A stretch of 64,000 nt of DNA from Bdellovibrionales bacterium (GTDB lineage: Bacteria > Bdellovibrionota > Bdellovibrionia > Bdellovibrionales > UBA1609), in assembly GCA_965203095.1 (NCBI GenBank), contig OZ241877.1:384001-448000 (forward strand). The letters run 5' to 3'. The notes below the pieces were generated by a model that was not told where the DNA came from, did not search any database, and saw nothing but the letters and a program-made list of their open reading frames with translations. The position numbers and the translations under genes are program-made. Of this stretch, positions 23,886-60,025 are shown piece after piece (the first letter of the stretch is position 1; the number at the start of each line of letters is the position of its first letter).

Positions 23886-24019
23886 GTTGCCTATAAAAAA
23901 TCTCTTGTTTTTTATCGCATAAGCAAAAGCCAGCAGTGAGGGTCCAAGGTATTGCCGTCCCGAACAAGCTGGACTTTTGCTTATGCGATCTATTAAATAT
24001 AGACTTTTTCACGGGCGAC
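23886..24019. mobile_element. Short (134-bp) variant of the palindromic MITE-like family
   Basis: Degenerate left TIR gttgcctataaaaaa, right TIR tttttcacgggcgac, central hairpin atcgcataagcaaaag-ccagc…gctgg-acttttgcttatgcgat enclosing the 27-nt core at 23938-23964. Confidence 0.75.
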
Positions 24020-24080
24020 TAAAGAATAATGCTTTAATGACTGGACTTTTTCACATGCCACTATTTATATCTTAGGATCT

Positions 24081-25199
24081 ATGAGCCTTATACAGGAAGT
24101 GAAAAACCATAACCCCTTTTTTTTGGCCCCAATGGCTGGGGTGACAGTCCCGCCCTTTCGTGCTTTTATGCGGGAAATGGGCTGTGGTGTCATTACCTCT
24201 GAGCTGGTATCTGCTCGTGCCCTTAAAGACAAAAATCAAAAAACACTTCAGCTTATGGAGTTTTCTGCAAGCCAAAAGCCTTATGGGATTCAGCTCTTTG
24301 GGGAAGACCCCTTAATTATTGCTGAAGGGGCCCAGCAAGCGGAAGACTTTGGTGCGGATTTTATAGATTTAAATTTGGGTTGCCCGGTAAATAAAATTAT
24401 TAAAAAAGGAGCGGGTTCTGCCCTTCTAAAGGATTTAAAAAAGCTTTCAAAAATTTTGCACTCACTTAAATCCAGTGTTAAAATTCCTGTCACATTAAAA
24501 GTCAGAACGGGTTGGGATAGTCAAAGCCTCAATGCCGATCAAGTGGCTCGAATAGCTTTTGAAGAGGGTTTTTCTTGGATGAGCATTCACGGTCGGACCC
24601 GCTCTCAGGCTTACTCCGGAAAAGCGGATTGGAATTATATTAAAGAGGTTAAATCCCGTTCTTCTATTCCTATTGTGGGTAATGGCGATTTGATTTCCGG
24701 AGCTATGGCTTTTTCAGCCTTGTGTTTTAGTGGTTGCGATGGGGTGATGATCGGGAGAGGTTGCTTAAATGACCCTTGGATTTTTTTATCCGCTTTAGAA
24801 CTGTTGAAGAAAAATCGCTCAATGGCAGAGGGGGTAGGTTCTCCCCGCGAAAAAACAATGGATGGGGAAGAGAAAAGCACCTGGATTGGCCCCAACAAAA
24901 ACAATATAACACTTGATTTTATTAGTCCAAAAGGCAAAAACTTTAAATTGGTAATGGATCGGTTAAAAAATCACTTGGAGGAATTTTATGATGAGCGACT
25001 CTTCCTTTTACAGATTAAAAAGTTTTCTGCATGGTTTTCTGCCGGCTTTCCCCACTCGACAGAATTTCGAAAATCTCTTTTTCAGGAAAAAGACAAACAG
25101 ATAGCCTTGCAAAAAATTGATGAATTTTTTACAGAGGTTCAAGATGAACAAAAGCCCCCTCCAGTTTATGAGCCTTTTTTAATGAAAGGGCATGGATAG
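24081..25199 (+). CDS. tRNA-dihydrouridine synthase (DusB-like)
   Basis: LAPMAGVT, QLFG, DLNLGCP, TLKVRTGW, IHGRT, GNGD, GVMIGRG. Confidence 0.92.
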   Translation: MSLIQEVKNHNPFFLAPMAGVTVPPFRAFMREMGCGVITSELVSARALKDKNQKTLQLMEFSASQKPYGIQLFGEDPLIIAEGAQQAEDFGADFIDLNLGCPVNKIIKKGAGSALLKDLKKLSKILHSLKSSVKIPVTLKVRTGWDSQSLNADQVARIAFEEGFSWMSIHGRTRSQAYSGKADWNYIKEVKSRSSIPIVGNGDLISGAMAFSALCFSGCDGVMIGRGCLNDPWIFLSALELLKKNRSMAEGVGSPREKTMDGEEKSTWIGPNKNNITLDFISPKGKNFKLVMDRLKNHLEEFYDERLFLLQIKKFSAWFSAGFPHSTEFRKSLFQEKDKQIALQKIDEFFTEVQDEQKPPPVYEPFLMKGHG

Positions 25200-25210
25200 T
25201 TTATTTAGGT

Positions 25211-25235
25211 GGATTCCCGCTTTCGCGGGAATGAC
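25211..25235. repeat. dRS3-like palindrome GGATTCCCGCTTTCGCGGGAATGAC
   Basis: Exact ATTCCC-N8-GGGAAT pattern. Confidence 0.85.
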
Positions 25236-25269
25236 TTGCTTTCGCGGAGGGCTATTTTAGAGGTTTGTT

Positions 25270-27258
25270 ATGAATGGAGTAAAAAAATTTCAGTTAAAAT
25301 CTCCTTTTTCTCCTAAAGGGGATCAGCCTCAAGCTATAAAGCAGTTATGCAATAATTTTAAAAACAAAATCAAAAGGCAAACCCTATTGGGTGTGACAGG
25401 TTCCGGAAAAACATTAACTATGGCTCATGTAATAAAAAATCTGAATGAACCGGCCCTGGTTTTAGCCCCTAACAAAACTTTGGCCGCCCAGTTGTTTGTA
25501 GAATTTAAAGAGCTTTTCCCAAAAAATGCTGTAGAATATTTTGTGAGCTATTATGATTACTATCAACCAGAAGCCTATATCCCCTCAACCAATACTTATA
25601 TTGAAAAGGATGCCTCCATTAACGAGCAAATTGATTTGATGAGGCATTCGGCCACAAGATCTCTTTTAGAGCAAAAAAATGTTATTATTGTTAGCAGTAT
25701 TTCCTGCATTTACGGCCTGGGTAGCCCCTTGCAATATGAGCAGTTATCCATTTCGTTGGAAAAAAACCAAAACATAGTGAGAGAGGATCTGTTGAAAAAA
25801 TTAGTGAACATTCAATACAAGAGATCAGATGCAGATTTTTACAGAGGGACTTTCCGGTGCCGAGGCGATGTGGTGGATATTTTTCCCGCTTATGAGGACA
25901 GCAGGGCTTTGCGAGTGGAGTTTTTTGGTGACTATATAGATTCTCTCAAGATTTTTGATCCTTTAACTGGAGGTTCTACAAAGGAAGTTCTGTTATCTAA
26001 AATTTATCCGGCCAGCCATTATGTCAGTGCGAAGGAAAGGGTCCGCCAGGCCATAGAGCAGATCCAGGAAGAATTAAAAAAACATCTTTTGGTTTTAGAA
26101 AAAGAAAAAAAGATAGAGGAAAGAGATCGCCTCCAACAAAGAACACTTTACGACTTGGAGATTCTTTCTGAAATGGGGACTTGCCCCGGAGTGGAAAACT
26201 ACTCTCGCCATCTGACCGGACGAAAACCGGGCCAGCCACCACCCACTTTGTTAGAGTATTTTCCAAAAAAATTTATTAGCTTTATTGATGAAAGCCATAT
26301 CAGCATCCCCCAAGCGGGTGGAATGTTCCGAGGGGACAGGAATCGAAAACTCACATTAGTGCAACATGGTTATAGGTTGCCTTCCGCTTTAGATAACCGT
26401 CCGCTCAATTTTCAAGAGTTTGAAAACAGTTGGGATAAGGTGGTTTTTGTCTCTGCCACACCGGGGGATTATGAGTTAAAAAACAGTAAAGCGGTTGTAG
26501 AGCAAATTATCCGCCCCACAGGGCTTTTAGATCCTAAAATTTTTGTTCGCCCGGCAAAGGGCCAAGTTGATGATCTTTTAGAAGAGATTAAAAAAAGAGT
26601 TGAGAGAAAAGAACGATCTCTCGTCACCACCCTTACAAAAAAAATGGCTGAAAAGCTCACAAGCTATTACCAAAACCTTAACATAAAAACAAAATATTTG
26701 CACAGTGACATAAAAACTATAGAGAGAACAGAGATTCTGGGAGATCTAAGAGCTGGTGTTTTTGATGTCCTGGTGGGGATCAATTTGTTAAGGGAGGGTT
26801 TAGATCTTCCGGAAGTCAGCCTTGTAGCGGTTTTTGACTGTGACAAAGAGGGTTTTTTGCGATCGGAGAGATCCCTCATTCAAATTATTGGCCGGTCCGC
26901 TCGAAACCTTAATGGAATTGTGATACTTTATGCAGATCGCAGGACAGAATCCATGAAAAAAGCCATTAAAGAAACCGAACGGCGAAGAAAGATCCAGCAA
27001 TCTCACAACAAGCAAAAAGGCATTCGTCCTCAGTCTGTCAAAAAGCTTTTAAGAAAAGGCCTTGCGGAAATTTACGGTTTTGCCCCACAAGAACCTGAAA
27101 TTTTAAAATCAAAATGGCCAGAGAGCAAAGTGAGAGAAAAAATCAAAAAGCTGAAAAAACAGATGCAAAAGGCCGCTAACAGTTTAGATTTTGAGCAGGC
27201 GGCCCGGCTAAGAGATCGCATTAAAGGCTTGGAGTTAAAAGAGATGGATATGTCTTAA
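25270..27258 (+). CDS. uvrB: Excinuclease ABC subunit B
   Basis: GDQPQAI, GVTGSGKT, YYDYYQPEAY, DESH, SALDNRPL, C-terminal UVR domain. Confidence 0.98.
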   Translation: MNGVKKFQLKSPFSPKGDQPQAIKQLCNNFKNKIKRQTLLGVTGSGKTLTMAHVIKNLNEPALVLAPNKTLAAQLFVEFKELFPKNAVEYFVSYYDYYQPEAYIPSTNTYIEKDASINEQIDLMRHSATRSLLEQKNVIIVSSISCIYGLGSPLQYEQLSISLEKNQNIVREDLLKKLVNIQYKRSDADFYRGTFRCRGDVVDIFPAYEDSRALRVEFFGDYIDSLKIFDPLTGGSTKEVLLSKIYPASHYVSAKERVRQAIEQIQEELKKHLLVLEKEKKIEERDRLQQRTLYDLEILSEMGTCPGVENYSRHLTGRKPGQPPPTLLEYFPKKFISFIDESHISIPQAGGMFRGDRNRKLTLVQHGYRLPSALDNRPLNFQEFENSWDKVVFVSATPGDYELKNSKAVVEQIIRPTGLLDPKIFVRPAKGQVDDLLEEIKKRVERKERSLVTTLTKKMAEKLTSYYQNLNIKTKYLHSDIKTIERTEILGDLRAGVFDVLVGINLLREGLDLPEVSLVAVFDCDKEGFLRSERSLIQIIGRSARNLNGIVILYADRRTESMKKAIKETERRRKIQQSHNKQKGIRPQSVKKLLRKGLAEIYGFAPQEPEILKSKWPESKVREKIKKLKKQMQKAANSLDFEQAARLRDRIKGLELKEMDMS

Positions 27259-27277
27259 ATTAAAGTCAGAGATTTAG

Positions 27278-27325
27278 GTTTTGTGGGGAATGTGGCTTTT
27301 CTGGATTCCCGCTTTCACGAAATTT
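27278..27325. repeat. Degenerate dRS3-like/long-repeat fragment
   Basis: gttttgtggggaatgtggcttttctggattcccgctttcacg resembles the module at 36086-36125. Confidence 0.55.
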
Positions 27326-27332
27326 GCAAGAG

Positions 27333-28832: not shown

Positions 28833-28872
28833 TATGTTCTCCTGAAACTAAAAAACCTTTGCCAAGCCAATT

Positions 28873-29889: not shown

Positions 29890-29931
29890 AACATTTTATC
29901 GGTCCTAATAAAAACTCTCAGATTTGCAAGT

Positions 29932-33050: not shown

Positions 33051-33058
33051 TATAAAAT

Positions 33059-33072
33059 TTTTTACGGGCGAC
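33059..33072. repeat. Solo TIR lying back-to-back with the long repeat copy
   Basis: tttttacgggcgac, a 10-nt spacer, then gtcgcccgg. Confidence 0.7.
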
Positions 33073-33082
33073 TACTAAAATG

Positions 33083-33265
33083 GTCGCCCGGCAAGTTTTC
33101 GGCTTGCTCCCAGAAAACCTCAATCCTACAAAAGTAAGAATCCAAAAAAATCTATCCTTTCCACAAAACTTACTAAAAAGCATTATTCTTTAATTTCTTT
33201 GTCCAAAGCCCCGCCCCATTTCGGGACGGCAATACCTTGGACCCTCATGGGGCTGGGCTTTTGTC
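33083..33265 (-). repeat. Long (~185-bp) variant of the palindromic repeat family, inverted relative to 35988-36169
   Basis: Reverse complement carries the 27-nt core (33220-33246), then taaagaataatgctttttagtaag, tggattc, gcaagccgaaaa and a TIR-like end, colinear with 35988-36169. Confidence 0.75.
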
Positions 33266-35878: not shown

Positions 35879-35943
35879 ATTTTTTAACAAGATTTATAGG
35901 AAAGAAAAAGATACCTTGATTCCCGCTCAAGGCGGGAATTGAC
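35879..35943. repeat. TTTTTAACAA module plus dRS3-like hairpin
   Basis: attcccgctcaaggcgggaat at 35919-35939; same layout as 36075-36125 and the reverse complement of 61535-61600. Confidence 0.7.
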
Positions 35944-35987: not shown

Positions 35988-36169
35988 CTTTTGCCCAAAG
36001 CCATTCCATGAGGGTCCAAGGTATTCCCGTCCCGAAATGGAATGGCCTTTGGGCAAAGAACCTAAAGAATAGGCTTTTTAACAAGCTTTGCGGAAAGACA
36101 AACTCTTCTGGATTCCCGCTTTCGCTGGATTTCGGCTTCCGGGGGCAAGCCGAAAAAAGTCCGGAGGAT
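35988..36169 (+). repeat. Long variant of the palindromic repeat family
   Basis: ttttgcccaaagccattccat-[core 36010-36036]-atggaatggcctttgggcaaag, then ctaaagaataggctttttaacaa, ggattcccgctttcgc, gcaagccgaaaa, ccggaggat. Confidence 0.8.
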
Positions 36170-36211
36170 CTTTAGGCAAAGTTTATGTGTTTTTTCCAAA
36201 AAAACAGCGGT

Positions 36212-36242
36212 GAGGGTCCAAGGTGTTTTCCCGCAAAATGGC
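36212..36242 (+). repeat. Degenerate extra copy of the 27-nt core
   Basis: gagggtccaaggt matches the first 13 nt of the core exactly. Confidence 0.65.
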
Positions 36243-36294
36243 AGAAAGTTTTTATGCTTTACCAACAAAATTAGGGGCAGTTCCAGCTTTAAAG

Positions 36295-44378: not shown

Positions 44379-44547
44379 TTTTTTATAAAAATAAGATTCC
44401 TAAGATTCCCGTTTTCACAGAAATAACAAAGTTTCGCGGAAATAAAATAAAAAAAGTTGTATTTTTATTGCCTGGCCCACTGTCTTATAGTATTCGTCAA
44501 ACAAAACTGAGGGAGTTGAAAATTTATTTAATAAGGAGGAAGGCTTT

Positions 44548-48527: not shown

Positions 48528-49439
48528 TTAATTTTTTATATGCTTTTTAATGTTTTTAGCTAAGCCTTCCAACTGCTTGAGTTGGTCATGTTTTCTCAAT
48601 TTGAGATCTTCAGGATTTTCCCCTTTCAGTAAAGCTTTAATATACCTTTCAAAAGCATAAACGGGGCCATAAATTTTATTTGAGAGGTAAATGAAAAAAA
48701 TACCAATAAAAACACAAATCAAAAATAAAAAGAAAAAGGAATATTTTAAAAAACTAAAGCTGATTTGCCGGATATTGGCAAAATTAGTGATCTGAATAAA
48801 ACCTATAAATTGGTAATTTATTAAAAGGAAAAAAGTAGACAAAATAAAAAAAGCCAAAGCAGAATAACCAATAAATTGAAGCTGATAAGATCTCATGATA
48901 ATCAACTGCTTTCTTCTATCCTCAGGAAAAGTCTTTTTGAGGAAAAAAAACTGAGCAATAATAAGCCCCCAAGCTAAAGTTTGAAAAATATCGGCTAAAT
49001 TAAAGTAAAGATCAAAATCCTTAGAAGGGGACCATTTTATAAAATCCAAAACATAACCATTAAATATTTTATTGACAATGTTGCTTAAAAATCCAGCAAA
49101 TAAAATACTAATCCCCGTTTGTAGGTAAAAGAAAGCTTTAGGGATAAAAATCAAAGAGATCACATAGTAAAAAAGAAATAAGCAGAGAATGGCCGTAAAG
49201 TAAGTGGGGGGCAAAAACGAATCACTACCCAATTTCAAATTCAGGACAAGATCAAAGTTTTTAACAGGTGGAATAAAAGAGAAAGTCAAAAAATCACTCC
49301 CTGGTTCCTTAAAGGAGTGAAAGGCGAATTGCTTGCTTATCTGATCGACAACAACAAGAAATATAAAAATGGAGAGATGAATAATGATATATCGGCTTTT
49401 TAACCATTGGCTTTTGAGTTTCTTAAAAAATAAAGACAT
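48528..49439 (-). CDS. lspA: Lipoprotein signal peptidase II fused to a 2-TM/HAMP-like C-terminal domain
   Basis: DQISK, GYVLDFI, FNLAD catalytic motifs; C-terminal SNKIYGPVYAFER…LRKHD. Confidence 0.75.
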   Translation of the reverse strand: MSLFFKKLKSQWLKSRYIIIHLSIFIFLVVVDQISKQFAFHSFKEPGSDFLTFSFIPPVKNFDLVLNLKLGSDSFLPPTYFTAILCLFLFYYVISLIFIPKAFFYLQTGISILFAGFLSNIVNKIFNGYVLDFIKWSPSKDFDLYFNLADIFQTLAWGLIIAQFFFLKKTFPEDRRKQLIIMRSYQLQFIGYSALAFFILSTFFLLINYQFIGFIQITNFANIRQISFSFLKYSFFFLFLICVFIGIFFIYLSNKIYGPVYAFERYIKALLKGENPEDLKLRKHDQLKQLEGLAKNIKKHIKN

Positions 49440-49512
49440 CGAAAGACCCTCCTTTTAAACAAAACTTTTATAGAAAAAAACCAAAGTCAAGGAGTTTTAA
49501 TAAACTATAATA

Positions 49513-49665
49513 GTCGTCCGTGAAAAAGCTGGACAAAAAACCTCGTCCTCTTTTTCCTGCTTTTGTCCAAAGGCCATTCGGTGCTGGTCCAAGGTATTGT
49601 AATACCGAAATGGAATGGTCCTTTGGACAAAAAAAGTTAAAAAACAAAGGTTTTTCACGGGCGAT
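49513..49665 (+). mobile_element. MITE-like palindromic element, copy 1
   Basis: TIRs gtcgtccgtgaaaaa / tttttcacgggcgat; tataata on both sides (49506-49512, 49666-49672); internal hairpin with a variant core. Confidence 0.85.
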
Positions 49666-49704
49666 TATAATAAACTAAAAAAATAATGCAAGGCAAAAAA
49701 AACC

Positions 49705-50703
49705 TCAAATCCTTTTTTTAATAAAACGCCCATAAAAAGCTCCCGCTGAGTAAAAAAAATGCTGACTGGTCCAAAATACAGGGACCCACCCACTGAGGGC
49801 TTTTTTACTCCTTATGAAAAGCTCCAAAGCGGCCCCAAACAAAATCCCCAAATAAATGAGCAATCCCAAAAAAAATACTTTTTCAAAAATTCCTAAAATA
49901 AAAAAGCTTATCATAAAGGGAGAGAAACAAAGGCGAATGTAATATAGCACTTTACTTCCATCCGAACCATAATTTAAATGGATAGGGGCCCGCACAGCTC
50001 CAAAAGCAAACAGCCTTTTGAGCACGGCCAGGTAAGAGCAGGCATAATTGTTGATAACTAAGGGATAAGGGAACAGGATCATATCTCCTTTTTGTGTTAG
50101 CCTCAAGCCCAAATCTAAATCTTCCCCAAGGCTTTTATATTTTGCAGAAAAATTTCCGCAATTTAAGACAGCTTGTTTTAAAAATAAGCCATTTGTTGTA
50201 GGGATGTGAAATACTTTTTTTGCTCCTCTCACTTGTTCAGCCTGTGGGCTATAACCATGGCCGAAAGGATGACTTAAGCTCAAATTGAGGACTTTTTGCC
50301 ATAATCTTTTTGAAGGGAGGCGGTTAGGCCCTCCCACAGCCACAACTGAAGAACTGGCCTTCTCATAGTTTAAAATAAGAGTTTCCAACCAATTTTTTGG
50401 GAGACGGCAGTCACTATCAGTAAAGGCAAGTAAATCGGACTGAGCACGATCAACTAAAACAGAACGGGCAGAACCCAAGTTATTTATAGAAGAAGAAAAA
50501 ATTTTTAAAGGGAGTTGATTTAAAAAGCTTTCTGCCACTTTTGTTGTTTGAGAACAGGCTGAGTTTAAAAAAATAAGAACTTCCTTTATCCTATCCAAGG
50601 CATTTTGATTTTTTATGTCTTTTAAGGTGAGGGCTAAAGCCTCCTTTTCCCGATGGCTAACTATCGCTACTGTGATTTTTTTAAGGAAATCTAACTTTAA
50701 CAT
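49705..50703 (-). CDS. Glycosyltransferase family 2
   Basis: AFTDSDC (DxD), VAVGGP, GEDLDL, C-terminal TMs. Confidence 0.85.
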   Translation of the reverse strand: MLKLDFLKKITVAIVSHREKEALALTLKDIKNQNALDRIKEVLIFLNSACSQTTKVAESFLNQLPLKIFSSSINNLGSARSVLVDRAQSDLLAFTDSDCRLPKNWLETLILNYEKASSSVVAVGGPNRLPSKRLWQKVLNLSLSHPFGHGYSPQAEQVRGAKKVFHIPTTNGLFLKQAVLNCGNFSAKYKSLGEDLDLGLRLTQKGDMILFPYPLVINNYACSYLAVLKRLFAFGAVRAPIHLNYGSDGSKVLYYIRLCFSPFMISFFILGIFEKVFFLGLLIYLGILFGAALELFIRSKKALSGWVPVFWTSQHFFYSAGAFYGRFIKKRI

Positions 50704-50770
50704 ATTATTGGCCTTTTTAATATAGCCTAAAATTTGACAAAATTTAATTTTGAGTTAAGATGGCTATGTT

Positions 50771-51235
50771 ATGCAATGGTTTTTTGTATTTTTTGTTTTG
50801 TTTTTTCCTTTTTCCGGAAAAACCATTTACAATTTAAAAACCAGCCAGGAGAATCTCCCGGACACAAAGGCCAAACATTGGCTTTTGTTGTCTCAATCTT
50901 GCCACTCCTGTGCTGAGCTGATAGTCCGTTTGGAGACATTTTGCACTGGGAAAAAACCCTCTCCCTCTCAAATTGGTTTTTGGGCTATAGGTTCCAGCCC
51001 TTCAGCTCTTTTAAAAAAATTAAGGAGTTTTAAATCGGATTATGAGATTTTTTCTGGTTCTCTCAATGAGTTTTATGAAACTTACAAAGTGATGGGGACA
51101 CCCAGCTTAAAAATTAAGGGCAAGGCTCAATCTATTAGAGGGAAAGGGCCTATTTTAAAATACTTAACAAAAGCCTCTGGTTTTTGCTTGGCTACTGACC
51201 ATTCTCAAAACCTGTCCTTCCTGAAAGTGGCATGA
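50771..51235 (+). CDS. Secreted thioredoxin-like CxxC protein
   Basis: Signal-like N-terminus, SCHSC motif, cis-Pro-type GTP loop. Confidence 0.6.
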   Translation: MQWFFVFFVLFFPFSGKTIYNLKTSQENLPDTKAKHWLLLSQSCHSCAELIVRLETFCTGKKPSPSQIGFWAIGSSPSALLKKLRSFKSDYEIFSGSLNEFYETYKVMGTPSLKIKGKAQSIRGKGPILKYLTKASGFCLATDHSQNLSFLKVA

Positions 51236-51278
51236 GGGAAAAATTGAACTATACTAAGGACTGTTCCCCGGCCAGTAT

Positions 51279-52406
51279 TTATAATGTGTTTTTGCGTAAT
51301 AATATGTTTTGTTCTAATGTTTGTCTCTCTTGGCTTTTCTTAAAAGCTCTATGACATACACTGGCAATGGGAACCACCGTCATAGATAATAGAGCTTGTG
51401 CCACCAGCTCTAAACCTACAGAGGCTTGAGACACATGGGCTGGTGGAAAAAAGTTTTCTGTAACAGTGAGCGGTTGGCCTACACTCCAACCAATTACATG
51501 TGCAAATAATAAAGGAAAGAGAGGATACCACCAACCTTTTGGAATGGGAGTACGCTTTTTATAGCCTTTTCCTATATGGTTTTCAAGTGCTATGTAGGCC
51601 GACTGATTCCCCTCTGAGGCGGCCAGTTCAGTCAATTTGTCACCGGTGAGAAAAAACCTCCTAACATCTTTATTTTCCCTCAAACCCATAAAAGGATTTT
51701 TGTATAATAGTGGCTCGTTGCTTAGGGAAAACAGGTCTTTAATATATCCTCCCGCAGTCCTTCCATCTTTGGATTCAGCGTAAGAAACACGAATAATATC
51801 AGAAACAGGGCCTTCCAATATGAGCTTATGAAGGAGTTGCCTTACCTTTTCCTTGTTTTTTGATAAAATGGCCTGGCCAATGGCTGTCTCTTCTAAAGGA
51901 GGGATGAGTATTGTCTCGTTCCCCAATGCGATGAGTCTGTGATTTTTAAGAGGATGTTGTTCAGTTTTTGAATCCAAACCGAAACCAAACCTTTGCCCAA
52001 GAGTGAGTTGAAATAGAGGCTCGCCAGACATTAAAAACAGTAAAGTCCTCATTTCTGAAGAAAATTCTTCTCGGTGTTTTTTGGCTTTAATCATGAGATG
52101 AATAATGCTGTTGCCTTTTTCATCCCAATAAGAGATGGCCTCAGCAAACTCATCTAAAGGGGCTGATAACAGGCGACTCATCTCATAGTAATAAGCCTCT
52201 ATGTCTGACTTCTGGACTGTTTTATAAAGGGGAGAAGGGCTTGTTGCTCGAGGAATTTCTAACAATTGCCTCATTTTATTCTCATAAGAGCCCTGATTGG
52301 GGTCCAACATTCTTGACAACTGTTCAAAGGCTTTATAGCCCGTTCCATGGGAGTGAACATGGTATTGTAGGAAAAAAATAAGTAAGGACAACTTCAAAAG
52401 TTTCAT
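51279..52406 (-). CDS. Secreted/membrane hypothetical protein with degenerate ankyrin-like segments
   Basis: Signal peptide MKLLKLSLLIFF; DEKGNSIIHLMI, KDGRTA, ELAASEGN; two C-terminal hydrophobic helices. Confidence 0.55.
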   Translation of the reverse strand: MKLLKLSLLIFFLQYHVHSHGTGYKAFEQLSRMLDPNQGSYENKMRQLLEIPRATSPSPLYKTVQKSDIEAYYYEMSRLLSAPLDEFAEAISYWDEKGNSIIHLMIKAKKHREEFSSEMRTLLFLMSGEPLFQLTLGQRFGFGLDSKTEQHPLKNHRLIALGNETILIPPLEETAIGQAILSKNKEKVRQLLHKLILEGPVSDIIRVSYAESKDGRTAGGYIKDLFSLSNEPLLYKNPFMGLRENKDVRRFFLTGDKLTELAASEGNQSAYIALENHIGKGYKKRTPIPKGWWYPLFPLLFAHVIGWSVGQPLTVTENFFPPAHVSQASVGLELVAQALLSMTVVPIASVCHRAFKKSQERQTLEQNILLRKNTL

Positions 52407-52651
52407 AGTGGGCTGTTTTATAGATAATTTACTTGATATTGTCAAATATTTTTTTTGGACAGGAATTTTTTACACTCATACTGGAATTGTTGAGCAAAAT
52501 TTGTGGGAAAGATTGACTTAAATAGTCTAACACAGTATTAAGATTCTGAGCTTTATACCAATTTTGTTTGAAAATTCCTGTTTTCTCTACTTTGTTTTGA
52601 CTGGAAATTTCAACTGTGATCAGTATAAGAAAAAATTGTTAGCTGGATATT

Positions 52652-53464
52652 ATGGCAAAAAATCAGTTTGAAATCCCTAAAATGGGTTTTGGAACTTATG
52701 GCTTAAAAGGGGAGGAGACTTTTCAAGCCGTCTCTACCGCTTTAGAGGCTGGATTAAGGCATATTGACACGGCCCCCATTTATGGCAATGAGGCGGAAGT
52801 GGGGAGAGCCATAAAAAGATCCCCTATAGTTAGGGATGAGCTTTTTCTAACCACAAAAGTATGGAGGACCTCTTTAACTTATGAAAAAGTAAAACAGAGT
52901 CTTTATAAAAGCCTAAACCATCTAAAAACAGAATATGTGGATCTTCTACTCATCCATTGGCCCAATAGGGAAGTCTCCTTAGAGGAGAGCTTACAGGCTT
53001 TTAAAGATCTAAAAAAAGCAAATAAAATTCTTCATATTGGGGTCAGTAATTTCCCCCTCTCTCTTTTAAAAAAAGCCAAAGCCTTTTGTCCGGACTTATT
53101 AACTAATCAAGTGGAGTATCATCCCCTTTTGTCTCAAAAAACATTATTGGATTACATGGGGCCGGAAAACCTGTTTTTAACAGCCTATTGCCCCTTGATA
53201 CGAGGCCATGTTTTTCGCCTCCAGCAAATAGTCCTTATGGCTAAAAAATATAGAAAAACCCCGGCTCAGATCACTTTAAAATGGCTTATAGAGCAAAAAA
53301 ATGTTTCCGCCATTTTTAGATCTAAAAATAAAAAGCATATTGAGGAAAATTGCAATATTTTTGATTTTGATTTAGAAGAGAAGGATAGGGAACAGCTTTT
53401 CCGCTTGAGCCGGAACCAAAGGAGAATCCTCAACCCTCCCTTTGCCCCTGAATGGGATGACTGA
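52652..53464 (+). CDS. Aldo/keto reductase
   Basis: GFGTY, IDTAPIYGNE, TTKVW, DLLLIHWP, IGVSNF, NQVEYHP. Confidence 0.95.
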   Translation: MAKNQFEIPKMGFGTYGLKGEETFQAVSTALEAGLRHIDTAPIYGNEAEVGRAIKRSPIVRDELFLTTKVWRTSLTYEKVKQSLYKSLNHLKTEYVDLLLIHWPNREVSLEESLQAFKDLKKANKILHIGVSNFPLSLLKKAKAFCPDLLTNQVEYHPLLSQKTLLDYMGPENLFLTAYCPLIRGHVFRLQQIVLMAKKYRKTPAQITLKWLIEQKNVSAIFRSKNKKHIEENCNIFDFDLEEKDREQLFRLSRNQRRILNPPFAPEWDD

Positions 53465-53474
53465 TGGCTAAATA

Positions 53475-53627
53475 GTTGTCCGTGAAAAATCTTTGTTTTT
53501 TAACTTTTTTTGTCCAAAGGACCATTCCATTTCGGGACGGCAATACCTTGGACCCTCATGGAATGGCCTTTGGACAAAAGCAGGAAAAAGAGGACGAGGC
53601 TTTTTGTCCAGCTTTTTCACGGAGGAC
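53475..53627 (-). mobile_element. MITE-like palindromic element, copy 2 (inverted)
   Basis: TIRs gttgtccgtgaaaaa / tttttcacggaggac; taaata on both sides; perfect core on the minus strand at 53531-53557. Confidence 0.85.
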
Positions 53628-53681
53628 TAAATAGAATTTTAATGATAGACATGGAGTGATATTTTAGAGCATAATCCACTT

Positions 53682-54233
53682 GTGCAACTTTTGCAGAAAG
53701 ATAAAACACAAAAATCCAAAGGCTTTAGCCTTATAGAGGTTTTGGCCAGTCTGCTTATCTTAGCCGGACTGCTTTCCATTATATCCCAGCTGTTTTATGG
53801 GAATAACCGGCGGATAAGAAAAGCCCGGCAGTTGGAAAAAATAGCCAGTCTTTTAGAGCTTAAAATGATCCAATTAGAGGAGGAATTTTCCGGCCCGAAA
53901 ATTGTCCAGTTGCCAAATCAGGATAAAGGAGAGTTTAAAAATGAGGAAAACTATTTTTGGAGTTACCAAACTCAAGCTATACTTTTGCCTTCCCCCAGGA
54001 TTTTGTTATCTCTATCCCGTCTTCCAGAATCAGAACTTTATCTCAAAATGGCTCAAATATTGACAGATATTTTGTCTGATAGCCTTGTGGAGCTTGAGCT
54101 TACAGTTCATTATAGGGGGAAGGGGAGGGAAGTGAGCTATTCCCTCAGCTCATATTTTGTCAATTATGAAACCGCTCCGGATTTTATTCTTAAATCTATA
54201 AGCCAGTTTTTGCCGGAAAGGGGAGCTTTGTAA
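53682..54233 (+). CDS. T2SS minor pseudopilin, GspI-like
   Basis: Prepilin site KG|FSLIEVL; order I-J-K-L-M-N. Confidence 0.75.
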   Translation: MQLLQKDKTQKSKGFSLIEVLASLLILAGLLSIISQLFYGNNRRIRKARQLEKIASLLELKMIQLEEEFSGPKIVQLPNQDKGEFKNEENYFWSYQTQAILLPSPRILLSLSRLPESELYLKMAQILTDILSDSLVELELTVHYRGKGREVSYSLSSYFVNYETAPDFILKSISQFLPERGAL

Positions 54234-55102
54234 TGCATTGTCCAACTCACTGTTTTTTTAAAAAATCAGCCCGATCCATTTATGGGATGACTCTTTTAGA
54301 AATGCTTTTGGCTCTTGGCCTTTTTGCTTTTATGTCTGTTTTTATTTCCCAAACTTTGAGACAAAGCTATCGCCATGCTCGCAAAGTGGGGCAGGATATT
54401 CAGTTTAAAAACTCCCTTTCCCATGTTTTGTCTTTGATCCGAAAGGATCTCCTCAGCACGGCTTATTTGTTAGATATCAATGCCAATTTTAACATTCACT
54501 TTCCCATTGAGGAAATGGCTGAAGAAGAGGAGAAAGAAGAACCTGCTAAAAAGGAAACTGCGGGCAAAGTGGAGCAACGATTCCCTGTTTTTTTAAATCC
54601 GCTTTTTATTTTTGAAGGGAGTAGCTCTGAGATGAGTTTTGTTTCCCATAGTTATTCTCAAAAAGCTTTAGATCCCTCTTCTCCTCAATGGGTGCGGATC
54701 CGCTATTCTGTTCAAAATTGTGATCTTGTGGAAGAAGGCTTGCTTGGCAAATGTTTGATTCGCTCAGTCTATCATTATTGGCAATCTATTGAAGAAAGGG
54801 AACCGGAAGAACAGGTCGTTTTGTTTAGAGCTTGGGATTCTTTGGAATTTTCCTATTCTGGAAAAAAAGAGCTTTTAGAATCAGAATGGAAAAGTGAATG
54901 GGAGGAGGAAGAAAGCCCGTCCCGTTCAGAAATTTTGCCTGTTCTTATAAAAATGGAAATGACAAAAAAGGATCGAGACAATAGCCTTTTATTTCCCGTA
55001 TCCCAGGATCTGTTGAGGAATTGGAATCCCAAAAGCAAGGCTTACCTCGGATTCCCTAAGAGAAAACCCCCTCAGCCCAAAAAAACGGAGCCTTCAAAGT
55101 GA
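54233..55102 (+). CDS. T2SS minor pseudopilin, GspJ-like
   Basis: YG|MTLLEML, IRKDL, C-terminal W..EW…LP.LIK.E. Confidence 0.78.
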   Translation: MHCPTHCFFKKSARSIYGMTLLEMLLALGLFAFMSVFISQTLRQSYRHARKVGQDIQFKNSLSHVLSLIRKDLLSTAYLLDINANFNIHFPIEEMAEEEEKEEPAKKETAGKVEQRFPVFLNPLFIFEGSSSEMSFVSHSYSQKALDPSSPQWVRIRYSVQNCDLVEEGLLGKCLIRSVYHYWQSIEEREPEEQVVLFRAWDSLEFSYSGKKELLESEWKSEWEEEESPSRSEILPVLIKMEMTKKDRDNSLLFPVSQDLLRNWNPKSKAYLGFPKRKPPQPKKTEPSK

Positions 55103-56316
55103 AACAGTCCCCTCTAAAAAAACAGTCCGGAGCGGCCCTGCTCATTATTTTAGCTGTGGTCAGCTTGATCCTACCCTTAGTCCAAGGGCTGTGGTTGGAT
55201 TCTCAAATTGAGTATCGCTTTAAGCAAAATCGCATGAGTGAATTGCAGGCCCAATATCAAGCCAAATCCGGCCTTTCTCTCAGTTTACTAAGAGTTTATA
55301 TTTTTAAAGGAATGGAAAAGTCTCTCCAAGGCCAATTCCAATCCATAGCTCTCCCCATTTTAGACAGAGTGTGGGCCTTTCCCTTTATGTGGCCCTTGCC
55401 CAAAGCCAAAGATCTTTTGGAAAGTGAAAAACAGGAACTGGAAAGCTTAAGCCAGCAGTCTTTTTTAAAAGGTTCTTATAAGGTTTTTATCACTCCAGAA
55501 GATGGCCTTTTAGATGTAAATGACTTGGCCAGCCCTCTTCCCTCTTTAAAGGAATGGACTTATGGGATATTTATGTCCCTTTTTACAGAGCTTTTAGAGG
55601 AAAAGCTCCAAGGAAAATACAGTCCCGAAGATATGAAAAAAACGCTCAATAATATTTCCGATTGGGTAGATCATGATAATAACAGCCAAAATGGAGGTTT
55701 AGAAGAGTTTGTAGAAGAGGGAAAAAAGCCTCTCAACCGCTCTTTTGTTGATGTGGAAGAGATTAAAAAAGTCCCTGGAATGAGTTTGGAGCTGTTTTCT
55801 GCCTTAACACCTTATATCACAGCTCATGGGGCTAAAGGCTTGAATATCAATTATGCCCCAAAGGGGCTTTTGCAAGCTCTCTTTTCAGAAGAGCTGGTGG
55901 AAGCTATTTTGTCTCGAACTCAAATGCATTCCGAATATTATGAGCCTTTTGCCAATAGGGAAAGTTTTTGTGATTTTGTTAGTGAATGGGCTGGTTCTTC
56001 TTTTTGTGAGGGGGAGGCTCAAGATCTCCTAACTTTTCTCCGTTTTGAGCGACCAGTGGCTTTTCGCATAAGCTCCCAAGGGAAATACAAGAAAAAATCT
56101 GTGCTTTTATCAGCCCTTTTGTTGGATCTGTCCTCATTGGCCTTGATCTATCAGGAGAGCTTATCTCGTGAAAAACAAAAACAAGAGGAGTTAGAGGAAA
56201 AGCCTACTGGTGAGTCCTCAACTGAAAAGCCCTCTCAGCAAAAGTCTGAACCATTGAAATTTGATTATTCCCATTTTAAATCTTTAGTTATAATGTATCT
56301 AAAAGGCCCTTTTTGA
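55099..56316 (+). CDS. gspK: T2SS pseudopilin GspK
   Basis: SG|AALLIIL, A.Y.AKSG, EDG.LDVN, DWVD.D, EIKKVPGM, LNINYAP. Confidence 0.85.
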   Translation: MKQSPLKKQSGAALLIILAVVSLILPLVQGLWLDSQIEYRFKQNRMSELQAQYQAKSGLSLSLLRVYIFKGMEKSLQGQFQSIALPILDRVWAFPFMWPLPKAKDLLESEKQELESLSQQSFLKGSYKVFITPEDGLLDVNDLASPLPSLKEWTYGIFMSLFTELLEEKLQGKYSPEDMKKTLNNISDWVDHDNNSQNGGLEEFVEEGKKPLNRSFVDVEEIKKVPGMSLELFSALTPYITAHGAKGLNINYAPKGLLQALFSEELVEAILSRTQMHSEYYEPFANRESFCDFVSEWAGSSFCEGEAQDLLTFLRFERPVAFRISSQGKYKKKSVLLSALLLDLSSLALIYQESLSREKQKQEELEEKPTGESSTEKPSQQKSEPLKFDYSHFKSLVIMYLKGPF

Positions 56317-56422
56317 TAGAGTGAGGATGGAAGTGAGCTAAATTTTTAAATGAAAAGGGAGTATTTAATGGGTATTGAGGGCCATAATGGCTTTTGTCAG
56401 TTTTTAAGAAGAGGATAATCTT

Positions 56423-58093
56423 ATGGTGAGTGTTGGTATTTGTATTGGGCAAGGTCGCCTTTGTATAGCTGAATTGGACTTAAAAGGGGGCCGGCCCCGC
56501 AAACTCTCTTTTGAAGAGCTGTTTCCTGAAAACTCAGACTCTCAAAAAGAGTTGTGGGCTTTACTCTCCCAGCAGTTGGCTAAAATTAAAAAACGACGAA
56601 TGGGGCAAAATCTTCGTTTTTGTTATGGCATTCCCCAAAGCTTCGTCACTAGTTTTTTGGTGGAATTTCCTTTTAAAGAGAAATTTAAAATTTTAAAAAC
56701 CTTGCCCTATGAAATTGAGGACAAATCCCCCTTCCGTTCAAACAAAGTTTTTTTTGATGCCAGAATATGCCAGATAAAGGACAAAAACAAAAGCTCCGCC
56801 TTATGCTTTGTGACTCCGGAAGAGCATGTCCAGTCCTTTATTGAAAAGAGTCAATCTTTGGAAAAGTCAGCTTATCTCCTCAGTTGTGAAGGTTCTGCTT
56901 TGGCTAACCTTTTGGAATTTTGGGGCCGGCCTTTGTCTCAACCTCAAAACACAGGCTCCCTTTACATTTATCTTGGGGTGCATAACAGCCAGTGGTTTTT
57001 TTATAAAAATGGGCACTTACAAAATGTTTCTGTTTTGGATTGGTCTGCAAAGCCTATCATAAAAGAGATGGAAAAACTGTATAAGCTTTCAGAAAAAAAG
57101 GCTTGGGAAGAGTTTTTTAAAAAGTCCTTTATTTTGACTTCTAACAAAAACTGGACTAAAGAGCAGGTGTTTTTTTCTAACTTAATTAAAAAGCATATCC
57201 AATTATTGATTCCCCAATTGGATTTGCTTAAGCTTTCTCTTGGGGCTGAGCAGGGGCTTTCCATTTCATCAGCTGTTCTTTTTGGCCCCGGTTCCGCTAT
57301 AAAAAATTTAACTGCTTTTTTAACTGCACAAGTGCCCGTTCGTTTTTCTCGTCTTCAAAATCTCCCGGACTTTCCGGATTTTAATTTAGAAAGCCATCCC
57401 TCCTCTTGTATAGCTTTAGGCTTGGCTTTAGAGGGTTTAAAAAGATCTCCCTATTCGGGACTTAACTTTTTGCGATCGGTTAAAAGGGAGAGCTTTTCCT
57501 TTTATCCCAAGAAATGGAAAAAACTGGCTTTAGTTTTTGGGCTTTGTTTTTTTGTTTGGACCCTTTACTCTTTTGTAAGGATGCGGGAAAGCTCTAAAAT
57601 TTTAGATAAAGTGAAAGTAGCTTTTGTAGCTTATGGGAAAAAGATCGCTCGTTTACCGGAAAGCCAAGTTCATGAAGAATCTGTTAAATCTTTTTTAAAA
57701 AAGAGAATGACTGAAACAGAAAGTGAAAGAGCTGTTCGACAGAGGCTTAAACAGCCCCAGCCCATGGATTATCTTCAGAAAATCACTCAAAAATTAGGTT
57801 CGGCAGAGCCATGGGGTTTGAGCATTCACTACCTCAAAATTGATGGTCCTTCTGCAGAGATTCGGGGGCAAGTGAATCGATCCTCTTTGGAAAAATTTAA
57901 GTCGCATATTCAAAATTTAGCCAAAGGCCCTGTTAAAGAAGGGGAAAAAGGAGGGCTAAACCTTCCTAAAAAAAACAAAATTCAACCACTGGTAGAGGGG
58001 GATCCGCTTCAACAGGCAGAGGCTTTAGGGGATGGCCATGCTCCACAAAAGGTCTTTTTTTCTTACTCTTTTCAATTTAAAAAAGAGCTTTAA
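56423..58093 (+). CDS. T2SS GspL (PilM/PilN-like actin-fold + TM)
   Basis: SVGICIG actin-like start, LPYEIED..PF, LFGPGS.IKNL, ALGLAL, TM then periplasmic domain. Confidence 0.75.
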   Translation: MVSVGICIGQGRLCIAELDLKGGRPRKLSFEELFPENSDSQKELWALLSQQLAKIKKRRMGQNLRFCYGIPQSFVTSFLVEFPFKEKFKILKTLPYEIEDKSPFRSNKVFFDARICQIKDKNKSSALCFVTPEEHVQSFIEKSQSLEKSAYLLSCEGSALANLLEFWGRPLSQPQNTGSLYIYLGVHNSQWFFYKNGHLQNVSVLDWSAKPIIKEMEKLYKLSEKKAWEEFFKKSFILTSNKNWTKEQVFFSNLIKKHIQLLIPQLDLLKLSLGAEQGLSISSAVLFGPGSAIKNLTAFLTAQVPVRFSRLQNLPDFPDFNLESHPSSCIALGLALEGLKRSPYSGLNFLRSVKRESFSFYPKKWKKLALVFGLCFFVWTLYSFVRMRESSKILDKVKVAFVAYGKKIARLPESQVHEESVKSFLKKRMTETESERAVRQRLKQPQPMDYLQKITQKLGSAEPWGLSIHYLKIDGPSAEIRGQVNRSSLEKFKSHIQNLAKGPVKEGEKGGLNLPKKNKIQPLVEGDPLQQAEALGDGHAPQKVFFSYSFQFKKEL

Positions 58094-58125
58094 AAAAGCC
58101 GTTTTTTTATGAGAGGAAATACGAA

Positions 58126-58848
58126 ATGAAGGAAAAAGCAAAAAATATAAAAAAACAGATTTTCGAACTTTGGAAAGGTTTTGAAAGTCGGCTTTTAGAA
58201 AGCGACAGCTTTAATATTTTAAGGGAAAAATATCAGTCTTTAGATGTCCTTCACCAAAAACTGTTACAACGTGTGTTAGCACTCTTTTTGCTTTTTGCCC
58301 TATTGGCTTGGCCACTTTATTGGTTTTTCTCTTCTGTTTTTTATTGGGGGGAATTTAAGAGCACACAAGATCTCAACTCACAGATGTTAAAAATGAGGAA
58401 AACTCCATCTATTTTTCGTTATTCCAAATCGAATCTCAAAAACAAAATAGAGAGAATTGTCAAAAAATACACTTCATCTGAATTTCAAATTAAAGATAAA
58501 AAATCTTTATTCTTAAAAAACAGCTCTATTTACCAAGTGGATTTTAATATTCGTTTAAATCATCTCAATATTAAACAAGTGGCTCGCTTAGGGGCAGAGT
58601 TAAACAGGCTCTCTCAATCCCGCTTGAGTGCTATCACTATGGAGGAAAACAAAAAATACCCTCAACATTATGATGTGGCTTATAGGCTTTCTGCTTTTAT
58701 TTCAGAAACTAAAAGAGGGACTTTTCGCCCAAAAACCCCCCGGACCATCCCCTTAAAGGGCAAAAGTTTAAAGGGGGAAAAATCAGCTCTTCCTAAAAGA
58801 AAAAAACGGAAGAAGAGAACAAAACCTAAAGGGCCACAGGTTGAGTAA
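58126..58848 (+). CDS. T2SS GspM-like protein
   Basis: Single TM, ferredoxin-like C-terminal part; lies between GspL and GspN. Confidence 0.6.
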   Translation: MKEKAKNIKKQIFELWKGFESRLLESDSFNILREKYQSLDVLHQKLLQRVLALFLLFALLAWPLYWFFSSVFYWGEFKSTQDLNSQMLKMRKTPSIFRYSKSNLKNKIERIVKKYTSSEFQIKDKKSLFLKNSSIYQVDFNIRLNHLNIKQVARLGAELNRLSQSRLSAITMEENKKYPQHYDVAYRLSAFISETKRGTFRPKTPRTIPLKGKSLKGEKSALPKRKKRKKRTKPKGPQVE

Positions 58849-58873
58849 AGTAATAGAATAAAAGGACTAAAAT

Positions 58874-59830
58874 ATGTTTTATGTTTTAAAAAAACTCATT
58901 GCTTTTGTTTGGAGACAAAAAGCAAAACTAATTCTTGTTTTTGTGTTTGCAGTTTTGTTTTTTTTCATCCGTTTTCCTTGGAATGATCTGTTGGAAAAGA
59001 AGGCTAAAGATTTTCAAAAAAAAATCCCTTCTACCCTGCAAACAGATTTTGAAAATATCCACCTTAAACTTATTCCCCCCGGCTTAGAGTTTGAAGATTT
59101 ATTTATTCATTATAAGGGGAAAAGCCTGACATTTCCCTCTATAGGCATTTTTCCTGCTTTTAAAGAGTGGTTGACATTAAAACCGGCATGGCGGGTTAAG
59201 GCACATCATAAAAATTCTTCTCTTTCCTTTGTTGTTTGGAAAAAGAAAAAGCCTTTAAAAGAAGGGCCTCCTGATTCTTCAATAGATATTTATTTTATTA
59301 AAGGCAATGCTCCTTTTTGGGAGTTAGAGGTTTTAAACAACTTATTTAAGGTGAAAATGTCAGGATTGGCCAGAGCTTTTTTTGATTATAAAGGTTCGCT
59401 TAAAAAGTTTGAGGAGGTTATAGCTTTTTTGAATTTGAAAGGGACAAATGTTCAGCTGTCGGGAACAGAGTTTAAAACTGCATTAGGCCCTTTAAATTTT
59501 CCTCCTATGAAATGGAAGGAAATAGAAATAGCCTCCCATTTAAAAGAGGGGGAATTGGTTTTTAAAACTTTTCGTTTAGGAGCTGTGGGAGATGATTTCA
59601 TTGTTCGGCTGAAGGGGAGCGGGGCTTTGTTATTCTCTTATGGAAAAGTTCGCTTAAACTCTTATGACATTCAACTGCAAATGGATGTGGATAAGGCCCT
59701 TTCAATAGGCATATTGGATTTGATGTTTGCCAATTTTAAAGAGGACAAAGGCTCTTTTTATAGATACAGCCTCCGTTTGAGGGGGCAAGGGCATCGGGTC
59801 CCTAATATGGAAAAACTACCAGAATTTTAA
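58874..59830 (+). CDS. T2SS GspN (deltaproteobacterial type)
   Basis: N-terminal TM ending FF.RFPW.DL, beta-rich body. Confidence 0.7.
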   Translation: MFYVLKKLIAFVWRQKAKLILVFVFAVLFFFIRFPWNDLLEKKAKDFQKKIPSTLQTDFENIHLKLIPPGLEFEDLFIHYKGKSLTFPSIGIFPAFKEWLTLKPAWRVKAHHKNSSLSFVVWKKKKPLKEGPPDSSIDIYFIKGNAPFWELEVLNNLFKVKMSGLARAFFDYKGSLKKFEEVIAFLNLKGTNVQLSGTEFKTALGPLNFPPMKWKEIEIASHLKEGELVFKTFRLGAVGDDFIVRLKGSGALLFSYGKVRLNSYDIQLQMDVDKALSIGILDLMFANFKEDKGSFYRYSLRLRGQGHRVPNMEKLPEF

Positions 59831-59873
59831 TTTTGAGGTTTTTGGGCAAGTTTTTTCACAAGCAACTATTATA

Positions 59874-60025
59874 GTCCCCCGTGAAAAAGCTGGACAAAAA
59901 ACCTCGTCCTCTTTTTCCTGCTTTTGTCCAAAGGCCATTCGGTGATGGTCCAAGGTATTGCCGTCCCGAAATGGAATGGTCCTTTGGACAAAAAAGTTAA
60001 AAAACAAAGCTTTTTCACGAGTCAT
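59874..60025 (+). mobile_element. MITE-like palindromic element, copy 3
   Basis: Nearly identical to copy 1; TIRs gtcccccgtgaaaaa / tttttcacgagtcat; preceded back-to-back by a degenerate TIR at 59852-59866. Confidence 0.85.

Follow-up and report, generated by a model that had tools for sequence, protein, structure and literature searches.

The 27-nucleotide core that recurs along this contig is the conserved tip, or cap, of a hairpin, and the repeat that carries it is a gene-less MITE with IS5-family ends that has spread in a Bdellovibrio-like bacterium. Judged from sequence comparison, the cap is under position-specific constraint, and the fact that its fold is retained in distant species as well as on two different carrier repeats suggests that something reads the folded single strand. 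We favour an account in three layers, in which an IS5 MITE is the vehicle, the arms diversify and the cap is selected; as a whole we give it a probability of about 0.55.

Core copies in the window and in the source genome

The window is the whole 64,000-nucleotide stretch that was analysed. An earlier note on this DNA had placed exact cores at 23938 (+), 33220 (-) and 53531 (-) and single-change cores at 36010 (+) and 59944 (+), and a scan of the window bore out every position, giving a total of five copies that are exact or have one change; none of 100 shuffled windows contained any core match. The variant core reported at 49583 is present with six mismatches (covariance-model score 45.9 bits) and the partial copy at 36212 is a degenerate core (20.9 bits), while that near 61637 holds only the 3' half of the core (61633–61645, minus strand; nhmmer E 0.088). 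The four stem pairs that the note quoted all occur in the window; what it overlooked were outer 16-bp inverted ends and target duplications around 49513–49665, 53475–53627 and 59874–60025. The features are as follows.

23886..24019, plus strand: A-type element with a degenerate left end; arms at 23914–23934 and 23968–23989, right inverted end at 24004–24019
23938..23964, plus strand: conserved cap (core), exact
33200..33262, minus strand: hairpin with exact core at 33220–33246; outer left arm degenerate, ends unpaired, a lone end near 33059–33072
35989..36059, plus strand: end-less hairpin with core at 36010–36036; CGTC-type REP hairpins on either side, at about 35918–35943 and 36110–36131
36186..36267, plus strand: decayed copy with the partial core at 36212
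49513..49665, plus strand: complete B-type MITE of 153 bp with variant core at 49583–49609; 7-bp target duplication at 49506–49512 and 49666–49672
53475..53627, minus strand: complete B-type MITE of 153 bp with exact core at 53531–53557; 6-bp target duplication at 53469–53474 and 53628–53633
59874..60025, plus strand: B-type MITE of 152 bp with core at 59944–59970; right end worn, no exact duplication
about 59853–59866: second lone end, back to back with the MITE at 59874..60025
61476..61648, minus strand: remnants, comprising the core 3' half (61633–61645), a REP-like hairpin and a lone right arm (61476–61509)

All full-core copies in the window lie between annotated-type genes, and all six full elements fold as DNA with z scores of -3.7 to -6.3. 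The stems are about 22 bp long and differ in sequence among copies with pairing kept. In contigs of sequencing runs, loose ends occur at 49668 and 53469, at the margins of the two complete MITEs; no empty site was present in the contigs of four runs over 49300–60200.

Genome-wide collection of the core, as the earlier note had proposed, gave 43 exact copies in the source genome (G000) and 81 with up to three mismatches; nhmmer returned 140 matches at E < 0.01, 17 of which overlap crude ORF calls, mostly short ORFs or 5' extensions. Copies lie in both orientations between housekeeping genes. The core is better conserved than its arms, with a mean pairwise identity of 0.92 against 0.52 and 0.51 over 86 G000 windows, although the core value is inflated by anchoring the windows on the loop and about four of the 86 are chance matches. 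The core is seldom inverted relative to its linkers (4 of the 89 linker-core pairs that were scored).

The carrier is a MITE with IS5-family ends

The inverted ends of the carrier are 16 bp long (GT-N5-GTGAAAAA), they enclose a non-coding interior, which varies far less than end positions 3–7, and are flanked by a 6–7-bp target duplication of the pattern TA-NN-TA. Of the 59 end pairs in G000, 27 are flanked by exact 6- or 7-bp duplications (permutation p < 1/2000); in the portion of the related genome G114 that was covered, the figure is 39 of 77. The 6-bp duplications numbered 24 and 38 respectively, against maxima of 12 and 23 in 2000 permutations. Both ends were found within 125 bp of 44 of the 81 G000 cores, compared with 5 of 420 core-free gaps. 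Complete IS5-family elements with ends of the MITE type are present in three relatives (G119, G115 and G017); their transposase is of the NF033578 type (479.5 bits, cut-off 275), and 9 of 11 full copies have a 6–7-bp duplication. The IS5 group in the narrow sense makes a 4-bp YTAR duplication, unlike the elements described here.

No IS5 homologue or cognate transposase was found in the G000 assembly (90% complete) by tblastn and profile search, and profiles PF01797, PF05598, PF02371, PF13751 and PF00078 had no match there; the earlier note had suggested looking for a linked transposase, RAYT or IS110 gene, and G000 has neither Y1 nor IS110 genes, nor a reverse transcriptase. Its resident IS630 (six copies) and IS1634-like (four copies) elements were considered as a source and have different ends. 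The attC-like or Rickettsia palindromic element (RPE)-like mobility first envisaged is replaced by a DDE transposase of the IS5 family acting on terminal inverted repeats. On the evidence of ends and duplications, the vehicle is very probably a set of non-autonomous MITEs of 134–196 bp belonging to this IS5-family clade and spread in trans by a transposase now missing from G000. The transposase can do without the hairpin, which is missing from many full IS5 copies of the clade (G017, G115 L094/L102, G119 L093) that transpose all the same.

Distribution

The element is present in 8 of 109 genomes of the family, whose carriers have a median protein identity of 45%, and a model search of 150 genomes of the class matched members of genus g18 only, the genus with the longest and most varied hairpin forms. 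Over its full length the A-type element of G000 shares 82% identity with that of G114, and movement between genomes was probably horizontal. Core patterns, exact or gapped, had no match in the genome contig collection, which may exclude near relatives, and none was found in the plasmid and phage collections; two viral contig searches gave 0 and 3 matches and metagenome contigs gave 77 single matches. Of these 80, the 30 with the best-paired arms all scored below five true copies and look like chance matches. An 11-mer had at most eight matches in each of 400 phylum genomes (eight in G588), near control level. The earlier suggestion of an undescribed mobile, structured element is supported: a search of Rfam 15 at gathering and E-value thresholds matched only tRNAs, and no published description was found in a search of mainly open-access literature.

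Probable origin of the hairpin and diversification of its arms

At seven loci in G115 the hairpin is the right end of the element and comes after the transposase frame, whose stop codon falls within the left arm of the hairpin, and a variant hairpin is similarly placed at the end of a transposase frame in G114 (L105). One G115 MITE (L178) is a back-to-back fusion of two right ends, and chimeras with mismatched arms were found four times in G000 and once in G114. Given such intermediates, the hairpin may have begun in a single IS5 lineage, as its right-end segment, and the hairpin arms may have served as points of recombination and template switching, so that two right ends could join into a MITE; caps would then be swapped between stems by crossover in the common core, and the arms re-matched by copying one onto the other. 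Through fusion, swapping and re-matching the stems would become interchangeable and compensated with no need for selection on individual pairs, and we consider diversification by this route probable.

The earlier note took covarying stems to imply selection. Stems alone do not, as the cited part of one study (PMC8794818) describes template switching as producing multi-base compensatory changes in a single step, and arm homogenisation is described there and in part of a second (PMC8604942); because template switching can generate it, stem covariation alone is weak evidence of selection. Perfect covariation in long repeat hairpins may have this source in general, and by itself is no proof of a functional RNA.

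Constraint on the cap

The cap consists of a GA/GA pair, a 3-bp helix and a TCCAA/GT loop, with the apical motif Y-GA-NNN-TCCAA-G(S)...(S)C-GT-NNN-GA-R. The fold proposed earlier, GA/GA under a GGG/CCC helix, is real and covaries in relatives; in G000 itself none of 17 deviating copies is compensated. In G114, pairing survives 34 of the 35 double changes in the helix, and the unpaired letters are fixed: among 62 copies, with the variants GTG/CAC, AGG/CCT and GAG/CTC, 26 of 26 double changes are paired, and a held-out set of 22 copies gave 8 of 9. Each variant occurs on four or five of the five arm classes, and the three may represent only three events spread by recombination. Further substitutions, GG/CC to GC/GC in G115, G026 and G118 and closing T-A to C-G in G026, also keep pairing. 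The inner hairpin varies in length between 3 and about 150 nt, and TCCAA is unchanged throughout. Conversion of GA/GA to GA/TC was seen in none of 169 windows (86 from G000, 83 from G114) and had occurred in the sole G118 copy.

The case for selection lies in the unpaired letters that stay fixed between freely covarying pairs. The earlier note proposed a structure read by a trans factor; none was found for the core among the Y1, IS110 and reverse transcriptase genes sought in G000. We propose that a protein may read the folded GAGGG strand, such that copies keeping the cap would be duplicated or retained more often; our guess at the reader is not the IS5 transposase itself but a host enzyme that processes single-stranded DNA and initiates recombination or repair synthesis at the hairpin. 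We hold this selected layer to be a tentative reading with a little under even odds.

Strand preference and the RNA alternative

Mismatches in the arms are biased towards G-T over A-C (55:18), which identifies the GAGGG strand as the folding strand and supports the idea of folding in one strand. The bias is G-U compatible, and the leading alternative, though an unlikely one, is that the cap acts as RNA, either at the 3' end of the transposase mRNA (as a stability, termination or processing signal) or as a small RNA, with MITEs acting in read-through transcripts. The hairpin does lie in sense orientation at the transposase stop codon at all seven G115 loci; however, all seven descend from one element, and the constraint persists in MITEs that have no transposase. 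The UGA/GA pairing with an internal loop resembles k-turn and SECIS cores, one G115 copy has a GUAA tetraloop, and the long G119 forms have a multi-helix, RNA-like look (eight copies, six of them aligned, too alike for a covariation signal). Twister, hammerhead, SAM-I, box C/D and SECIS motifs, compared by eye, were rejected because partner strands or spacing are missing. An RNA role also sits poorly with the lack of any Rfam match, with the orientation of co-directional neighbours, which shows no bias (26 versus 24), and with the prevalence of divergent gaps (53 of 121, the commonest class), where read-through is least expected. Tips of the form GCGNAGC/GCGNNAGC in G026, G118 and G115 match a stable DNA mini-hairpin in the cited part of PMC13037366, and such GNA triloops favour DNA; the GCGTAAGC tip doubles as an RNA GNRA loop, and the commonest tips, TATT and TATTG, are of neither type. 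A substrate of single-stranded DNA is somewhat more likely than one of RNA.

A possible neutral origin, and copies without inverted ends

It is rather unlikely that the cap goes unread, in an ordinary MITE with template-switched arms and a core kept uniform by gene conversion and recent horizontal spread. Template switching can supply the compensatory changes and arm homogenisation (cited parts of PMC8794818 and PMC8604942), the core is the sole block common to all copies, its helix is uncompensated in G000, and the A-type identity between G000 and G114 implies that part of the likeness reflects recent transfer. Conversion of whole blocks, however, cannot account for fixed GA/GA and TCCAA flanking changing pairs in eight genomes with such varied inner hairpins, nor does neutrality predict the arm bias; and correction should erase GA/GA, as it did once in G118, yet GA/GA is never so corrected in the G000 and G114 windows.

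Inverted ends are absent from 21 of the 81 G000 cores and from nearly all copies in G109 and G120, and G120 has no IS5 match, so IS5 cannot be the sole route. An independent REP-like hairpin that has its own HUH (RAYT-like) or Ssn-like enzyme for movement, and gained IS5 ends later as mere carriers, would explain the dominance of end-less copies in G109 and G120 (some of them in a tandem array of six units with CGTC REPs), the CGTC-type REP within 200 bp of 15 of the 21 end-less G000 cores (38 of 420 core-free gaps) and the elaborate forms in g18, but is improbable given that there is no Y1 transposase in G000, G114, G120 or G109, that the Y1 genes of G115 and G119 are IS200-like with no cap within 1.5 kb at the two loci examined, that the three GIY-YIG matches in G000, a link the earlier note had raised, sit in frames of 263–621 amino acids with no short Ssn-like gene, that no gene recurs beside the 22 end-less loci listed, and that the hairpin foot has neither a GTAG nor a CGTC tag.

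Returning to the selected cap, a bolder extension, which we regard as unlikely, is that it is a selfish module independent of its vehicle: a folded single-stranded DNA signal that would recruit a host enzyme for recombination or priming, spread on any carrier repeat (IS5 ends or CGTC REP arrays), turn single IS ends into MITEs and cross genus borders, as one of a wide, unnamed class of hyperparasitic bacterial MITE cores. MITE interiors are usually regarded as dead weight between transposase sites. In this family the interior holds a small constrained motif in which paired positions vary and unpaired ones are fixed, on two unrelated carriers and in distantly related genomes. Natural variants of the family are at hand, together with its cognate transposase, chimeric intermediates and a visible instance of a MITE born from two IS right ends, so that the question of why some MITEs keep a folded core is directly testable.

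Comparison with known systems

Integron attC sites and RPEs keep their structure while stems vary, have a variable terminal hairpin, and fold better in one strand. The present element is like both in these respects (for RPEs, the cited part of PMC10969869), but differs in having neither cassette arrays nor conserved foot sites; its copies do not separate single-gene cassettes as same-orientation attC sites do, lying instead in both orientations among housekeeping genes, and they fall outside genes in the window, unlike RPEs inserted in frame within genes, while movement leaves DDE-type duplications. As for IS110 bridge RNAs, PF02371 is absent from G000 and the loop here is invariant rather than a variable guide.

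CGTC REPs and the Neisseria dRS3-NTS repeats with Ssn share with it dispersed hairpins and composite repeat clusters, and those hairpins are described as being read as single-stranded DNA (cited parts of PMC3733652 and PMC11893778). CGTC-type REPs adjoin end-less cap copies here. The cap hairpin, by contrast, has three times their length, lacks a CGTC tag and is conserved at its tip; it differs from the NTS repeat, and the RAYT profile PF01797 is absent from G000, G114, G120 and G109.

The closest likeness is to bacterial MITEs derived from DDE insertion sequences, described in part of PMC10969869 as short, non-coding and intergenic, with terminal inverted repeats, a target duplication and a stable hairpin, and with an autonomous partner having identical ends, which in this case resides in relatives; the present elements are set apart from these by a central cap with position-specific conservation that also occurs without the ends.

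Core copies in the window and host genome

Three exact copies of the 27-nt core and two with a single change lie in the window at the positions claimed by the earlier note, and no shuffled window (0/100) contained a match; the variant and partial copies it listed are real but degenerate.

23938 (+), core, exact
33220 (-), core, exact
53531 (-), core, exact
36010 (+), core, one change
59944 (+), core, one change
49583, core, degenerate variant
36212, core, degenerate partial copy
~61637, core, degenerate partial copy
25204-25233, CGTC-type (dRS3-like) REP hairpin
27296-27325, CGTC-type (dRS3-like) REP hairpin
36103-36132, CGTC-type (dRS3-like) REP hairpin
44403-44424, CGTC-type (dRS3-like) REP hairpin
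61810-61887, coding tandem repeat (21-bp unit) within a 227-aa protein

The window corresponds to G000:C1:384001-448000, and members of the host's family carry the label Bdellovibrionales. The host assembly (G000; 1.8 Mb, 38% GC, 90% complete) holds 81 cores at three or fewer mismatches, and a profile search gave 140 matches with E<0.01. Six full window elements folded, as DNA, into long hairpins (z -3.7 to -6.3). The core is more conserved than its arms (identity 0.92 versus about 0.51), the core figure being inflated because windows were anchored on the loop.

The 227-aa protein has a weak Hjc-type nuclease match and about eight host paralogues including itself. Other expanded host families are 13 Rpn-like proteins, a pentapeptide-repeat cluster of 38 ORFs and 11 tandemly grouped paralogues, each of about 320 aa. 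Contig C2 (17 kb), a tandem repeat with a unit of about 1.1 kb and without obvious bacterial genes, is possibly foreign to the genome.

Carrier MITEs and their IS5-family partner

Many of the hairpins are enclosed by 16-bp inverted ends, GT-N5-GTGAAAAA, as short gene-less MITEs. By a strict end pattern, 44 of the 81 host cores have both ends, 16 one and 21 none; both ends also occur in 5/420 core-free gaps. Perfectly matching duplications of 6 or 7 bp, TA-NN-TA in nearly every case, flank 27 of 59 host end pairs spaced 100-260 bp apart, and six-base flank matches numbered 24 against at most 12 after permuting right flanks. Such duplications were present at 39/77 end pairs in the part of related genome G114 examined and at two of the window's three complete MITEs; contigs from another study end exactly at the boundaries of duplication-flanked window MITEs. 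The IS630 and IS1634-like elements of the host were rejected as the source of these ends, as their own ends differ.

Back-to-back inverted ends sharing one TA-NN-TA are common (G000:C1:49278-49313, 294562-294598 and 1605951-1605986), which suggests insertion beside earlier copies. End positions 3-7 were much more variable than the interior in 14 host B-type MITEs (diversity 0.30, 0.17 versus 0.044); hairpin-bearing IS5 copies of G115 (L112, L116, L129, L133, L141, L147, L155, L163) showed the same variability, and hairpin-less IS5 copies of G017 did not.

In related genome G119, a 457-aa transposase is flanked by MITE-type ends and a TATTTA duplication; it belongs to the IS5 family (NF033578), as does a G115 homologue. 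Homologues occur in 9/109 family genomes, none being found in the 90% complete host assembly, and 9 of 11 full IS5 elements examined carry a 6-7-bp duplication. In one lineage the hairpin forms the right end of the IS (seven G115 loci, with a variant form at G114 L105): the left arm contains the transposase stop codon, and the cap, the folded hairpin tip, starts 5 nt downstream. Several IS5 lineages lack the hairpin (G017; G115 L094 and L102; G119 L093), and the transposase therefore does not need it. The left half of the G115 MITE L178 corresponds to the L112 right end, inverted, and the other half matches that of L179, making L178 a MITE born from two right ends fused at the hairpin. A resemblance of left linkers to inverted right linkers was seen in 10/87 host and 14/74 G114 cases (shuffles, 0 and 1).

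Cap covariation and distribution

A covariance model built from 27 hand-picked copies matched 8/109 family genomes, namely the host and 7/15 of genus g18; in 150 class genomes there was no match beyond the g18 carriers already known. The cap part common to carriers is Y-GA-NNN-TCCAA-G(S)...(S)C-GT-NNN-GA-R, although the GT strand is missing in some long forms; the inner hairpin ranges from 3 to about 150 nt. In 62 G114 copies, from sequence covering roughly one quarter to one third of the genome, all 26 double changes in the 3-bp helix still pair, giving three variants; 22 held-out copies added eight paired double changes and one unpaired. Each variant occurs on 4-5 of five arm classes, bearing out the interchangeable stems of the earlier note. 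At the base of the inner hairpin, G115, G026 and G118 have GC/GC in place of GG/CC, and in G026 the closing pair is C-G instead of T-A. Among host copies, 17 deviate in the 3-bp helix and none is compensated. Across the 27-row alignment, 11/13 named pairs showed double changes, unequalled in 500 shuffles and with slid controls far lower, a figure that is not a probability because the rows were selected for variety and are mutually related. Columns 18 and 70 of alignment A1, about 12 bp below the cap, form an A-T pair that is invariant in 27/27 copies; the remaining stem varies.

Template switching can make and mend stems in a single step, according to the available parts of PMC8794818 and PMC8604942, and its intermediates are present: four arm-mismatched chimeras in the host and one in G114, and GA/GA changed to GA/TC in one G118 copy. 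Matched arms therefore need no selection, and to that extent the earlier argument from covarying stems fails. Template switching should, however, erase the GA/GA and bulges too, and these persist in 86 host and 83 G114 windows; that unpaired letters stay fixed next to pairs that change points to selection on the folded strand.

Median protein identity between the host and G114 is 45% (213 pairs), and a whole A-type MITE is 82% identical across 137 nt. Nine congeners of the host lack it and gave no match to the covariance model. The simplest reading of these comparisons would be horizontal transfer from a g18-like donor; loss in the congeners is a less simple possibility.

Association with CGTC-type REPs

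Inverted ends are almost absent from copies in G109 and G120, which instead adjoin a second carrier, CGTC-type REPs, separate small hairpin repeats; G120 has a tandem array of six units. Such a REP lies within 200 bp of 15/21 end-less host cores versus 38/420 core-free gaps. An 18-bp hairpin unit, in one to three tandem repeats, directly follows the cap 3' in G120 (L150, L156, L171, L175).

Folded strand and proposed mechanism

Arm mispairs are G-T in 55 cases and A-C in 18, the copies not being independent, and this excess indicates that the GAGGG strand is the one that folds. We favour folding as single-stranded DNA, at a probability of roughly 0.55. Unbiased orientation in co-directional gaps (26 versus 24) and Y-GA-R, the context of tandem GA pairs, both count for DNA. 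So do the tips GCGNAGC and GCGNNAGC, found in G026 (2/3 copies), G118 and one G115 copy, which are of a type described as a stable DNA mini-hairpin in the part of PMC13037366 available. That the cap acts as an RNA structure is less likely, though the sense position at the transposase stop, one GNRA-compatible tip and the multi-helix long forms are in its favour. Folding as neither is improbable.

In the proposed mechanism the MITEs would be transposed in trans, their stems re-matched through template-switch repair and the cap maintained by copy-level selection. Of the linked enzymes proposed earlier, neither Y1 nor IS110 genes were found in the host, nor a short Ssn-like gene (for the proposed GIY-YIG). 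Reverse transcriptase genes were likewise not found there, nor any gene recurring beside copies. Our best guess for the putative reader of the cap is a host ssDNA-processing enzyme, because the cap is retained both where there is no IS5 transposase and where that enzyme can dispense with it.

Elsewhere, two long-form cap hairpins enclose a retron-like reverse transcriptase together with a 237-aa gene upstream of it (L273, G119:C1:118841-122401); in L274 (G120) and L275 (G115) a small gene lies upstream of a reverse transcriptase, by eye resembling a diversity-generating retroelement.

No Rfam family matches the hairpin, and we found no published description of it, general MITE papers being silent in the portions available. 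CGTC REPs are reported to have no transposase of their own (PMC3733652), and the Neisseria member is cleaved as ssDNA by Ssn nucleases (PMC11893778, in part). As a vehicle the MITE is ordinary; what stands out is the conserved cap, which occurs on two carriers and is testable.
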